Source of the DNA: Candidatus Hodarchaeota archaeon
Lineage (GTDB): Archaea > Asgardarchaeota > Heimdallarchaeia > Hodarchaeales > Hodarchaeaceae
Reading direction: 5' to 3'
NCBI GenBank assembly: GCA_016839815.1
Contig: JAEOTM010000066.1
Location: 1 to 64,000, forward strand
DNA: 64,000 nt
The position numbers and the translations under genes are program-made. The notes under the pieces are model-generated. The model made no database searches and had not been told where the DNA came from. It saw only the letters and a list, made by a program, of their open reading frames with translations. Positions 7,541 to 55,061 of the stretch are shown here, piece by piece (positions within the stretch are counted from its first letter, which is position 1; the number at the start of each line of letters is the position of its first letter).

Positions 7541-7885
7541 TTGTCTCTTGGGGAATTAAATGCAAAAAAAATTGAAACTTTGACCAAAGTAGCCAGATTG
7601 CTAGGTGATCAAATTCAAGCTCAGAGCAGAGCCATAAATAAGCTTCAAAATGAAATAGATTGGATAAAGGAATCATTAAGAAGAATCACTCATGAAGATG
7701 TTCCAGTAAAGGATGAAACGCATCAACCAGTTCCGGAAGTAACCTCTGAAATATTTCAAGAGGGAGAAAAACCTTTAACCTCTTCAACTGAAATAGATTT
7801 AACGAAAACTGAATTAACTGTTAAAAAAGAATCTTCAGAGAAAGAAGAACTTCTACAAGCATTAAAGATAATTGATAATCTTTAA
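7541..7885 (+). CDS. hypothetical coiled-coil protein with acidic linker and C-terminal amphipathic helix
   Basis: 114-aa ORF with heptad pattern in aa 5-50 and terminal EKEELLQALKIIDNL; AGGA SD upstream. Confidence 0.7.
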   Translation: MSLGELNAKKIETLTKVARLLGDQIQAQSRAINKLQNEIDWIKESLRRITHEDVPVKDETHQPVPEVTSEIFQEGEKPLTSSTEIDLTKTELTVKKESSEKEELLQALKIIDNL

Positions 7886-17076: not shown

Positions 17077-17131
17077 TTCAGTGATTGACTATATGAAATA
17101 TTATCTTAGAAAATCAATGTAGGTTTACACT

Positions 17132-17737
17132 TTGACCAATTTAGATGAATTCTTTGGGGATAATCAATCCCAAAATGTCGATACGCTGATCGCTGTAACA
17201 AAAAAATTCTTTGTATTTGTGTCACAATTAGCAGAAATTGTTGATGAATTGGAACGAAAATACGCAGAACTTAGTAATAAAATCAGTCAAGTTTCTCAAC
17301 AACCTGCGGCGTCCCCTCCTCTGTCAGCTCCAACACCAAGTCCATCACCTCCTATTACTCAACCAACAGCACCATCGACTGCACCAACACCTCCAAGCAC
17401 CCCTCCACCAAGTTTACCAACACCTCCCTCATTTCCAACACCTCCATCACCAGTACAGGCTCAACCGTCTGCTTTTCCTCCTCCAATGACAGCTAATCCC
17501 TCATCAGAAACTCCTGCAGCTATACCATCACCATCGAGTCTTCCACCGCTACCTGGGCAATCTCCTGCTCCTCCTTCTCCTGGTTTAGCTCCACCATCAG
17601 TCGGTACGCCAATGGGAGGTCCACAAGCACCAGCACCTCAAGCTCGTCCTTCTCCCATGAGTTTAAAAGCCCAAATGAATATGGAACTTAAAGAAGCATT
17701 CTCAAGAATCCGCAAAGGCTGGGATGAAGAAAAATAA
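17132..17737 (+). CDS. hypothetical coiled-coil / proline-rich protein with C-terminal helix and W-acidic tail
   Basis: 201-aa ORF: N-terminal heptads, about 115 aa Pro/Ser/Thr/Ala-rich, ends SLKAQMNMELKEAFSRIRKGWDEEK. Confidence 0.75.
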   Translation: MTNLDEFFGDNQSQNVDTLIAVTKKFFVFVSQLAEIVDELERKYAELSNKISQVSQQPAASPPLSAPTPSPSPPITQPTAPSTAPTPPSTPPPSLPTPPSFPTPPSPVQAQPSAFPPPMTANPSSETPAAIPSPSSLPPLPGQSPAPPSPGLAPPSVGTPMGGPQAPAPQARPSPMSLKAQMNMELKEAFSRIRKGWDEEK

Positions 17738-17752
17738 AGTAACTTCCCAGAT

Positions 17753-18703
17753 TTATTTCTGTTCTCCGTAAACTAGATCGGCCAGTTCTCTAAGGCGATC
17801 AATACCTCTAATTTCATACTCAAACGTAGGTATTTCATATAAATCAAATTCTTCATACAGGTCCTTAATCTTTCCAACACTCTTCTGTTGTTCGTTATAT
17901 CGATTCTTACAATAATTACAGCCAAGATTTTCTGGTTGTAGTTGATTAATATAAATTCGAGTAATCGGAAAGGCGACTTCAAATAATGCACGAATTAATC
18001 TTTCTGTTTCCCAAATTGCCATTACAGTAGGAATCGTAACTGCTACAAATTCAGTCTCCTCATTGTTGCTCAGATGAGTTCTCGCAATTTCGACCTGATC
18101 TCTCAGTTCTTCCAGTTTATCAAATGCATCCTGTTCATCAAGATCTGATCCGCCACCAAAAAGAGATTTAAATCCACCCAGCAAGCCTCCAAGGCGACGA
18201 CGCATTTTAATTAGTCGGAATAACCAGCTTTGGGTTAGTTCTGGTAATTGGAGGAGTTTCAATGTATGTCCAGTTGGGGCTGTATCAAAGACAACTATAT
18301 CATATTCTGGATTCTGTATGAATTCCAATAGCTGAATGAAGGCAACCGTTTCATCAGTACCAGGTGGGGATAACGCATTAGGATCACCATCTCCTAATAA
18401 CTCATTAAAAGCTCCAGTAGGATCCTGTTGACTTATCATTTCAGAATAGGTGCTCATTGCTTGATCAGTATTCAATTCAATTGCCCATAAATTCTCCACA
18501 TTATTAACCTTAATATAATCGTCCCCACCTATTTGTTGGTCTAAACTATCTGATACAGAGTGAGCTGGGTCAGTTGAAACTAATAATGTATTATGACCTA
18601 GATCAGCAGCACGAATAGCTGTTGCTGCAGCCATTGTAGTTTTTCCAACACCTCCTTTTCCTCCAAAAAACAGAAAATGTTTGTTAAATAATGAATTTGA
18701 CAT
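17753..18703 (-). CDS. ArsA/GET3 (TRC40) family ATPase
   Basis: GGKGGVGKTT, STDPAHS, DTAPTGHT, CNYC zinc-hook motif. Confidence 0.93.
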   Translation of the reverse strand: MSNSLFNKHFLFFGGKGGVGKTTMAAATAIRAADLGHNTLLVSTDPAHSVSDSLDQQIGGDDYIKVNNVENLWAIELNTDQAMSTYSEMISQQDPTGAFNELLGDGDPNALSPPGTDETVAFIQLLEFIQNPEYDIVVFDTAPTGHTLKLLQLPELTQSWLFRLIKMRRRLGGLLGGFKSLFGGGSDLDEQDAFDKLEELRDQVEIARTHLSNNEETEFVAVTIPTVMAIWETERLIRALFEVAFPITRIYINQLQPENLGCNYCKNRYNEQQKSVGKIKDLYEEFDLYEIPTFEYEIRGIDRLRELADLVYGEQK

Positions 18704-18797
18704 AAAAAGGGAGGGTAGGTATTTAAAACAAGAATCTTTTGTTAAGTACTAAGATTTAACAAGATAAACAAAATGGGGATAATTATACCTATTTTAG

Positions 18798-19412
18798 GTG
18801 ATATTAATGTGGACTGTGTCTAAAAGGTCTCAACTTGGTAGAATGATAGTTATAAGCGTTGTTTTTACAATTCTTTGCTTTAATTATATGTTAACGCAAG
18901 TTCAGGCTTCTCCATCAGGAACAACCAGTGTTTCTGATTTGTATCCTAGTTTATTTGTTACTAAAGATGTTGATAACTCAGAAGTAACATTAAATGAATC
19001 ATTTGTTGTAACAATTACGATAACTAACTTTGGAAATAGTACAGCGTATAACATTACTTTTATTGACACTTTGAATTCTCCTTGGGTATTTAAAACAACA
19101 GGGTTGACTGAACTCACTTACAGCTGGATCGAACCCAACCAAACACGGAGATTTAGTTATATTGTTACTGCTTTATCTGTTGGAGAATATGAACTACATT
19201 CTGCTAAAGTATATTATCGAATATCAGATCTTGTGGATACAGAGTTTTTAGCTTACAGTAATTCAGTTTATATTGTGGTAAATCAATTAGAAGAAGACTT
19301 CTCATTAGAAAATTTCAATTCTGCTGTTACTTTCTTACTTGTACTAATAGTTCTTAACATTGTACTTACTCTACGACTCATCGCACCAAGATTTAATCGA
19401 AGAAAGTCTTAA
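18798..19412 (+). CDS. TRAP-beta (SSR2)-like / DUF11 Ig-fold type I membrane protein
   Basis: Signal peptide; LFVTK...ITNFGNSTAYNITFID...IEP..T..FSY...GEY..HSAKVYY pattern; C-terminal TM plus basic tail. Confidence 0.7.
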   Translation: MILMWTVSKRSQLGRMIVISVVFTILCFNYMLTQVQASPSGTTSVSDLYPSLFVTKDVDNSEVTLNESFVVTITITNFGNSTAYNITFIDTLNSPWVFKTTGLTELTYSWIEPNQTRRFSYIVTALSVGEYELHSAKVYYRISDLVDTEFLAYSNSVYIVVNQLEEDFSLENFNSAVTFLLVLIVLNIVLTLRLIAPRFNRRKS

Positions 19413-53375: not shown

Positions 53376-55061
53376 TTATTCTTCTTTGAAGATTTCTCTT
53401 AGACGACGTAACTCTTTGAGCATTTCCCCTCGTAACTCTGCGATGCTTGTTGATCGTGCATCGGCAATTAAGTCTAGTGGGGAATCACCTGATTGACCTG
53501 AAGGTATCACAGGTTCAGGTACAGCTACTGGAGAAGGAGTGGGAGGAACAGGACTTGCAGTCGGCATCGGAGGCGCTACAGGAGGGCTAGATGGTGGTGG
53601 AGGAGGTGATGATGGCAAACCGACTGGTTTTGACTCAATGGGTGAAGCTTTCGGAGTTGGTTTCACGGTGGGAGTTTCACCCAAAACAGAATCAAAAAGT
53701 GCCCCCACTTTATCCGCACCTGGAGAACTTGGTTTAGCTTTTCTAAGACTACCAATTTTTGTCTTATACGATTTAATTCGGCCTTCATAATGTTTTACTA
53801 GAGATTCATAAACACGAGGTCGAAATTTGTCATCTCTTACAGCCTCTTTAAACTGGTTTATCAGACTAGATTCATTTTGGCTTAAAATCTCCAAATAAGT
53901 GACCATTTCCGTGGGAGTAGTTTTAAGATCAAGAAAAGAATCGGTGGAAACATCTGCTGTCTGGAAATCCCCACTAACATCTTCCGTTTCGAAATACAAC
54001 ACCGAGGTTATGAAAATCACTGCTAGAAACGAGAAAACTGCTCCAAACATGTACATTATATCCCAAGAATAGCCCATGAATGTGTAATTCAAATTTTCTA
54101 GATTCAATAAGTCTTGTACTTCAGTAGAAGAGGCAAAAACTAGTATAAATGAAGTTAAAACCATTAGAAATCCTATCAGCAATATAAAGATCCAGATTAC
54201 TTTTAGTTTGTCTAAAACACCACTAAATTTTCTCGAACTTGAGAGAAAGGCTGCAGCTGAAAATATCAGTAAACTTCCAAAAGAATAAATTACCTGCCAT
54301 TCTGTATCTAGGAGGAAATTAGCTTCAAGAACCTCAATACTTATTAAAAGTGATATCAGCGCAAATACGATTCCGATAATAACTGCAATTAGCCATAGGA
54401 TTCTGGTACTATCAAGAAAACCGCGGAAACCGTGACTCGCTGACATTAGAAGGGGGAAAATTCCTAAAATGAGAAATATCCCTCCACCAAAGAACAGCAC
54501 ATCCCAAGCAGTACCCCCGACTAGAGGAATTGTTTCGATTAGATCATCGATATAATGTCCATAAACTAGCATAGAAAGGATTTCTAACACAATCCCCACT
54601 AATATAAGGATAAAATACACAAATTTGAGATTCCACAATCGTTCACGATCTCTAACCCCAAATAATATTGGTAAAAAGCTTACACAGAATACAATAGCAG
54701 AAAGTGTGAAGAAATCAAACCATGATGAAGCTTCTGTGTCAATCGAAGTGATAAAACCACCATAAACTAATAATGAATATGTTATACCTAAAAGACTGAT
54801 ACTGAATAAGAGTACTAAATGAGGATAAATTTTCTTAACACTTGATTTTCCTCTGGCATCCATTACTGACAAAGAAGGTAGGGCTGTTATGATTGTCAAG
54901 TAAAAGCCGAAAACAAATAAGATTTTGTAATCTAATCCCAAGAACAACCTATCTGCTGAAGCTACGCCAGAATAGTAGAGAAAACCTAGTACAATGCTAA
55001 AAATGCCAATTGCTGTTAAAGTAAGAAGTCCTCTTGAAGTTTTTACGAATGTTTCTCTCAA
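53376..55061 (-). CDS. multi-pass membrane protein with helical hairpin, polyproline tract and C-terminal helix
   Basis: About 10 TMs in aa 1-355, then coiled coil, SSPPPPPSSPPVAPPMP, terminal SIAELRGEMLKELRRLREIFKEE. Confidence 0.75.
   Translation of the reverse strand: MRETFVKTSRGLLTLTAIGIFSIVLGFLYYSGVASADRLFLGLDYKILFVFGFYLTIITALPSLSVMDARGKSSVKKIYPHLVLLFSISLLGITYSLLVYGGFITSIDTEASSWFDFFTLSAIVFCVSFLPILFGVRDRERLWNLKFVYFILILVGIVLEILSMLVYGHYIDDLIETIPLVGGTAWDVLFFGGGIFLILGIFPLLMSASHGFRGFLDSTRILWLIAVIIGIVFALISLLISIEVLEANFLLDTEWQVIYSFGSLLIFSAAAFLSSSRKFSGVLDKLKVIWIFILLIGFLMVLTSFILVFASSTEVQDLLNLENLNYTFMGYSWDIMYMFGAVFSFLAVIFITSVLYFETEDVSGDFQTADVSTDSFLDLKTTPTEMVTYLEILSQNESSLINQFKEAVRDDKFRPRVYESLVKHYEGRIKSYKTKIGSLRKAKPSSPGADKVGALFDSVLGETPTVKPTPKASPIESKPVGLPSSPPPPPSSPPVAPPMPTASPVPPTPSPVAVPEPVIPSGQSGDSPLDLIADARSTSIAELRGEMLKELRRLREIFKEE

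Follow-up and report, generated by a model that had tools for sequence, protein, structure and literature searches.

Positions 17,132 to 17,737 of the window, by which we mean the whole stretch of 64,000 nucleotides analysed here, encode the long form, as present in Hodarchaeales, of a hitherto undescribed protein family that is near-universal in Asgard archaea. The protein consists of a long N-terminal helix, a proline-rich arm and a basic amphipathic helix at its C-terminal end, and we tentatively propose that it would act as an oligomeric adaptor of the Asgard actin system, Ena/VASP-like in character, with its end helix addressing actin and, in the proline-rich lineages, its arm addressing profilin. 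We regard this reading as quite possible, if still somewhat short of probable. The initial annotation of this DNA had seen in the same gene a minimal WAVE/WASH-like factor and, more broadly, an undescribed archaeal actin-assembly adaptor. The family is indeed undescribed, and the broader idea survives as a candidate that now draws on family-wide data, whereas the WAVE/WASH specifics did not hold.

Asgard archaea possess actin, profilins and gelsolins that resemble those of eukaryotes; in cultured strains, protrusions filled with actin extend at 1.5-5.3 um/min. The machinery for the nucleation and elongation of their filaments is yet to be discovered (PMC9433394; PMC13716822), and formins and Ena/VASP-type polymerases are assigned to eukaryotic systems of greater complexity (PMC13716822).

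Gene and predicted architecture

The open reading frame at 17132..17737 (+) comprises 201 codons plus a stop, exactly as first described. It begins with TTG, the sole possible start that retains the conserved N-terminus and, since the frame opens just 9 nt upstream and close homologues have a methionine at the equivalent position in an alignment of 28 sequences (A1), we take this codon to be the real start. An AT-rich, TATA-like element in the gap to the upstream gene suggests that the gene has its own promoter. GC content, about 0.31 in the flanks, climbs to 0.54 within the gene, because of the proline codons. This is confirmed as a real gene, with features far beyond what chance would produce. 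The coordinates of these features are collected in Table 1.

Table 1. Features of the gene and of the encoded protein, with positions in the window.
Feature	Position	Strand	Description
Whole gene	17132..17737	+	201 codons from TTG, then stop; homologues known
AT-rich TATA-like element	17090..17104	+	About 30-40 nt before the start, within the 55-nt gap to the upstream gene
N-terminal acidic/aromatic motif	17138..17161	+	Residues 3-10, core DEFF; predicted short helix
Long helix	17165..17296	+	Residues 12-55; AlphaFold2 pLDDT 81-93; presumed oligomerising coiled coil
Proline-rich arm	17297..17650	+	Residues 56-173; disordered, uncharged, 38% Pro
Double motif LPTPP-x-FPTPP	17414..17446	+	Residues 95-105, within the arm; conserved in the alignment
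S-x-LPPLPG motif	17534..17557	+	Residues 135-142; invariant; candidate docking site for a proline-motif reader
Conserved tail	17651..17734	+	Residues 174-201: S-P-M lead-in, basic amphipathic helix 178-198, end GWDEEK

The fold was predicted by AlphaFold2 with the 28-sequence alignment, which gave helices at residues 2-7, 12-55 (pLDDT ~81-93) and 178-198 (pLDDT ~88) and left residues 56-177 without structure, for an overall mean pLDDT of 64 and a pTM of 0.23. The short N-terminal motif follows a pattern that is kept across the family, namely acidic-acidic-F-x-x-hydrophobic-hydrophobic. The N-terminal coiled coil of the initial annotation stands insofar as a long helix is predicted there, although regular heptads are confined to about residues 33-54; residues 15-40 of this helix are conserved on all faces, and residues 41-54 are variable.

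The proline-rich tract, first put at about 115 residues, proved to be 118 residues long with 45 prolines (38%), charged residues being nearly absent from it, and all the strings quoted in the initial annotation are present. The amphipathic basic helix ending in Trp and acids was likewise recovered by the prediction. Its hydrophobic stripe is formed by L178, M182, L186, F190, I193 and W197, and the helix is hydrophobic on one face only, with a net charge of +2 to +3, a hydrophobic moment of 0.36 and a mean hydrophobicity of -0.25. The E185-L186 pair is invariant across the whole family.

An undescribed Asgard family

Among 5.8 billion proteins, a word-indexed search recovered 37 homologues, with E values from 2.6e-92 to 6.3e-32, and the named ones come from MAGs of Hodarchaeales or Heimdallarchaeota, where they are unannotated. 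The 28 sequences of alignment A1 conserve the DEFF region, the helix core at 15-40, the double motif LPTPP-x-FPTPP and the invariant LPPLPG, and in the tail almost every residue between 174 and 197 is invariant. When whole genomes were scanned with the A1 profile, full-length copies appeared in 21 of the 21 sampled genomes with the same family label, and weak partial matches appeared in ORFs of 130-160 residues from other Asgard lineages. A broad alignment (A2) was built with distant ORFs extracted from these other lineages, and its profile places the family in 334 of 400 Asgard genomes, in 81 of the 90 high-quality ones and in 72 of 85 genera, mostly as a single full-length copy per genome. 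Actin, too, is present almost throughout the phylum (103/121). In G137, taken to be the genome of L. ossiferum, the orthologue is found at L082:1300-1758 (2,628,811-2,629,254 of the 6.04 Mb) and has 152 aa and 16.1 kDa. Among the rows covered of the published Lokiactin co-IP table, locus tags 02231-02248, which surround the index of about 2239 expected for this orthologue, do not appear.

The protein encoded here thus belongs, by A1, by A2 and by the profile searches, to an unnamed Asgard family with a coil, a proline arm and an end helix. Searches of Pfam and NCBIfam with the whole protein, with its ends or with any of the 28 members brought up nothing meaningful, the Atlas look-up matches unnamed Asgard clusters only, and our literature search found no published description of the family. 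A HMMER profile search without filters against 1.84 billion representative proteins yielded 20 matches only, 17 of them members of the family or fragments thereof, two (P0045 and P0057) family segments in another context, and one (P0052) an unrelated coiled coil. P0057, a metagenomic protein of 196 aa, is a Zn-ribbon-type protein with a near-exact Hodarchaeales tail (ending GWDED) followed by extra acidic residues, and represents either modular reuse of the tail or a chimera of assembly or gene calling.

The plan common to all members in A2 comprises the N-terminal acidic/aromatic motif, the long helix, a flexible linker and a basic amphipathic C-terminal helix with the invariant Glu-Leu. Other features vary between subfamilies. 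Proline makes up 17-23% of the Hodarchaeales proteins and 14-16% of the Loki-type ones, which carry PPPPP-G repeats; three other subfamilies have just 6-8% Pro and no proline runs at all. The C-terminal GW with acids is invariant in the Hodarchaeales-type subfamily and absent from all others, which terminate in basic, Gly-rich or plain acidic sequence. In the comparison of orthologues that had been proposed for the tail, the helix and its E-L pair are kept family-wide, and the Trp-acidic end is confined to the Hodarchaeales type.

Several further variants and look-alikes were observed. P0021, P0044, P0046 and their relatives have an additional short helix inside the proline arm, with the pattern L-Q-x-E-L/I-x-S-A-M/I; its match to the first half of the tail profile is weak (i-E 0.044, P0044), and it may duplicate the docking helix. 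In the genera labelled g52 and g54, many family matches contain one in-frame stop, TAA/TAG in g52 and TGA in g54, which may reflect a profile match that runs 5' of the true start, or another cause. Within the window, the 561-aa multi-pass membrane protein encoded at 53376-55061 (-) has a C-terminal PPPPP tract followed by a helix whose pattern, L-R-G-x-h-h-x-E-L-basic, resembles the family tail. It is matched by the A2 profile within the genome (E 1.8e-5) and not by the tail-only profile, and may carry, anchored in the membrane, a related cassette of proline arm plus helix. The 114-aa coiled-coil ORF at 7541-7885 (+) was considered as a paralogue and rejected, as BLASTP detects no similarity (E 60).

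Likeness of the tail to the Ena/VASP F-actin-binding helix

In human VASP, the F-actin-binding helix (FAB) occupies residues 259-278, for which the sequence has been printed, the G-actin-binding block (GAB) occupies residues 223-239, and the tetramerising coil residues 343-380 (PMC10340426). The resemblance of the tail to FAB, noted by eye in the initial annotation, gained support from distant members of the family but is not significant for the very protein in which it had been noticed. The tail of the latter aligns to FAB with a Smith-Waterman score of 18 (p=0.21), which is not significant. The family tail profile, on the other hand, scores 8.4 bits against FAB without gaps, a value reached by 19 of 5000 order-shuffles. 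In the most distant subfamily, the tails have the same residue as human VASP FAB at 13-14 of 19-20 positions and reach Smith-Waterman scores of 55-56, against 20-21 +/- 4.4 for 3000 order-shuffles (p<0.0003), and the tails of three further subfamilies give p=0.0003-0.001 by Smith-Waterman. FAB also served as the query of a BLAST search covering 3.28 M residues, taken from six-frame ORFs of the genome itself and of all fetched loci; there, the most distant tails take the top four places (E 0.013-0.085, 68-74% identity), and the next match has E 5.1.

On these alignments, the likeness to FAB appears real for part of the family, and the link of the protein studied here to FAB rests solely on the homology of its tail within the family, given that its own tail is not significantly FAB-like. 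A match of 19 residues can also be convergent or due to chance, the E values being only 0.01-0.09 in 3.3 M residues. That the end helix would be truly homologous to the FAB of Ena/VASP, and the family an ancestral Asgard tether or elongation factor for actin filaments, is in our opinion improbable, and is considered here for what it would imply.

The likeness to Ena/VASP proteins otherwise lies in the combination of an oligomerising coil, a profilin-type proline-rich tract and a short basic amphipathic helix of the actin-binding type. The proline-rich region with profilin-type motifs is present in our protein, as an arm of 38% Pro with LPPLPG and PPP runs, although it is not universal in the family. 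An EVH1/WH1 domain is absent from every member by Pfam, and the protein encoded here is too short to hold one; its coil is N-terminal and has no match to VASP_tetra; the order of modules is permuted; and GAB, a WH2-like K-L-R-K block, was not detected, an LKKV being present in one family member only (L030).

Presumed partners in the genome and proposed mechanism

A eukaryote-like actin, with 440 bits on Pfam Actin, is encoded in the genome, as is a profilin of 122 aa at L007:688-1056 (+) (G000:C22), which matches PDB 6YRR, the Heimdall LC3 heimProfilin, with E 6.7e-37. This profilin is devoid of the N-terminal extension of the 6YRR protein, the alignment beginning past it. In the 6YRR protein, the extension weakens the binding of polyproline and of PIP2, and the N-truncated form binds a proline peptide of VASP, which includes P-P-L-P, with a Kd of 0.3 mM; the profilins of Loki and Odin, for their part, have been reported not to bind polyproline (PMC8410842). 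Neither SH3 nor WW domains were found by Pfam in the genome, which is 89.5% complete.

The genome also contains two divergent actin paralogues in tandem (L002/L003, G000:C66:89306-91881), with 192 and 240 bits on Pfam Actin, and an ARPC4-like ORF of 160 aa with 31.7 bits (G000:C149:48740-49042). ARPC2 was not found in this 89.5% complete genome. In L. ossiferum, the published Arf-like GTPase of 38.1 kDa that co-precipitates with Lokiactin maps to L089:703-1689 (-), at about 5.47 Mb of G137, an ORF of 329 aa and 38.12 kDa whose C-terminal extension is not proline-rich. It has neither the arm nor the tail of the family, and the same holds for all 13 extended Arf-like ORFs of the genome studied here, in which no significant paralogue of the N-terminal domain was found either.

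Short helices that bind actin homologues are known from other archaeal systems. Arcadin-2 of Pyrobaculum, with 203 aa, binds the hydrophobic groove of crenactin through a Trp-containing C-terminal helix of 17 residues (PMC5173319), and is similar to our protein in being archaeal and in having about 200 residues; only its C-terminal helix contacts the actin homologue (PMC5173319). It differs in belonging to the crenarchaeal arcade cluster, in depolymerising filaments and in having no reported proline arm, and the two were compared by description only. The WH2-type motifs of Asgard two-domain gelsolins are the sole short motifs binding the actin groove so far described in Asgard archaea (PMC9433394). 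The tail of the family member L030 has a literal LKKV in common with them; however, the gelsolin motifs lie between gelsolin domains, whereas the family treated here has no gelsolin domain and the tail of the protein under study is one continuous predicted helix.

In the mechanism that we propose, the N-terminal helix would assemble into a parallel coiled-coil oligomer and thereby make the protein multivalent. The LPPLPG and LPTPP/FPTPP motifs of the arm would then recruit the heimProfilin-type profilin of the genome, carrying actin, and the terminal helix would dock on actin, either at the filament, as the FAB of VASP does, or alternatively in the hydrophobic groove, in the manner of WH2 helices and of the arcadin-2 tail. 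Several tails per oligomer could tether or bundle filaments or aid their elongation, and the N-terminal acidic/aromatic motif might provide a second docking site that positions the protein.

In favour of the actin reading we counted the architecture of coil, proline-rich arm and end helix; a distribution that fits a core factor of Asgard cell biology (334/400 genomes, approximately single copy); the match of the distant tails to FAB and the presence of actin and profilin in the genome; and the classical PPPPP-G repeats of the Loki-type orthologues, together with the precedent of arcadin-2. Against it we counted that the protein's own tail reaches only p=0.21 with FAB and that no match to WH2, WH1 or VASP_tetra is found; that part of the family lacks the proline tract; that the best PPPPP motifs occur in the Loki orthologues, even though Loki profilins are reported not to bind polyproline (PMC8410842); and that the gene neighbours of the family vary and are never actin, profilin or gelsolin genes.

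Alternative explanations

The main rival to the actin-adaptor reading is a protein of the same build with a different partner, in which an oligomeric coil and flexible arms would carry end helices that recruit another conserved Asgard machine, much as the ribosomal stalk or the tails of FtsZ offer a terminal peptide at the end of a flexible linker. The features that are universal in the family, limited to the N-terminal motif, the coil, the flexible linker and the basic end helix, would suit such an adaptor; no profile ties the family to any actin-binding family, no neighbourhood ties it to the cytoskeleton, and the tail of the protein studied here is no more FAB-like than chance. What this explanation leaves unaccounted for is that the tails of several subfamilies match FAB far better than shuffled sequences do and come first in an unbiased BLAST search, and that profilin-type PPPPP/LPPLP motifs have accumulated in the arms of several lineages. 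We consider it rather unlikely, with weight enough to be kept in mind throughout.

The C-terminal helix might instead be a membrane-targeting amphipathic helix, and the protein a peripheral membrane scaffold, an explanation to which we give little credence. Its single hydrophobic face, its net charge of +2 to +3 and its location at the extreme C-terminus would be in line with such a role, as would the similar PPPPP tract and helix at the end of the multi-pass membrane protein in the same window. However, both the hydrophobic moment (0.36) and the mean hydrophobicity (-0.25) are modest, an invariant Glu lies within the helix, and acidic ends are common in the family. An internal Glu, acidic ends and a modest moment are unusual for a helix that targets membranes. 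That almost all tail residues are nearly invariant among the 28 sequences suggests, rather, a specific protein surface. Two further readings by known motifs were tried by eye and rejected: a MIM1/MIM2 ligand for the MIT domain of Vps4, represented by the tail and LPPLP, for which neither the MIM1 Arg nor the hydrophobic residue at i+7 is conserved, and a PTAP late domain, since conservation is also lacking for the PTAP at residues 77-80.

The WAVE/WASH-type reading, in which the coil would form a bundle of the CCDC53/BRK1 type and the helix with its Trp-acidic end would activate an Arp2/3-like complex, is not supported, and we consider it very unlikely. Its appeal stems from the order of modules, which runs from a region of the helix-bundle kind through a proline tract to an amphipathic helix and then, in the Hodarchaeales form, to Trp with acids, and so resembles the WHD-PRD-CA arrangement of WASP/WAVE/WASH proteins; the tandem actin paralogues and the 31.7-bit ARPC4-like ORF would also fit. 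Nevertheless, hmmscan against Pfam gave no match to CCDC53, BRK1-type, WASH, WH2, WH1 or VASP_tetra models in any of the 28 members (E<=10), and the WH2 model in particular matches neither the tail nor, in a whole-genome scan (E<=10), anything at 17132-17737. The likeness of the N-terminus to CCDC53/WASHC3, which the initial annotation had drawn by eye, did not withstand comparison with Pfam or PDB sequences either: among the best 60 matches of the A2 profile to the latter there are only generic coiled coils, mostly trimeric, and no WHD, BRK1 or CCDC53. The Trp-acidic end is specific to one subfamily and lacking from most of the family. Of the two Arp2/3 subunits looked for, ARPC4 and ARPC2, the latter was not found in the 89.5% complete genome, where a complete Arp2/3 complex is not evident.

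The genomic neighbourhood was weighed as a source of function as well. In Hodarchaeales, a pterin-binding (DHPS-like) gene, the gene studied here, a convergent ArsA/Get3-like gene and a TRAP-beta-like gene follow one another, and the same order is found in three other Hodarchaeales contigs. They form part of a longer block that starts with KaiC-like and F420-ligase-like genes before the pterin-binding gene and continues after the TRAP-beta-like gene with tRNA endonuclease, RMI2-like, NDK and H+-PPase genes, this order being kept too. The adjacency of the ArsA/Get3-like ATPase gene and the TRAP-beta-like gene is observed at 17753-19412 of the window and at L004/L005/L006, with Pfam TRAP_beta recognised in the orthologues. 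Elsewhere among the Asgard lineages, genes of the family have unrelated neighbours (radical SAM, Elf1, phosphoglucomutase, PIG-L, glycosyltransferase, CYTH and tRNA endonuclease), and in the lineages examined actin, profilin and gelsolin genes are never neighbours of family genes. As the neighbours differ between lineages, the context offers no functional clue, and the idea of a link to Get3 was down-weighted. An adaptor of the GET pathway for tail-anchored proteins, acting with the adjacent ATPase, would draw on the conserved tail-to-tail arrangement with the ArsA/Get3-like gene ahead of the TRAP-beta-like one and on a weak Pfam MDY2_C (Get5 C-terminal) match in 2 of the 28 members (E 0.16), but is hardly credible, because the two genes are convergent and hence not co-transcribed, the entire region is syntenic, which makes their adjacency uninformative, and the neighbours elsewhere in Asgard archaea are unrelated.

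Significance for Asgard actin biology

A near-universal, small and single-copy family that combines a coil, a profilin-type arm and an end helix similar to the FAB of VASP is a concrete candidate for the missing part of actin assembly in Asgard archaea. If the adaptor role were confirmed, the origin of a filament-assembly module would move to before eukaryogenesis. Should the end helix prove to be truly homologous to FAB, a piece of the toolkit made of an oligomer, a profilin-recruiting arm and a filament-binding helix would predate eukaryotes, and the family would power the fast actin-based protrusions of cultured Loki- and Hodarchaeales cells.
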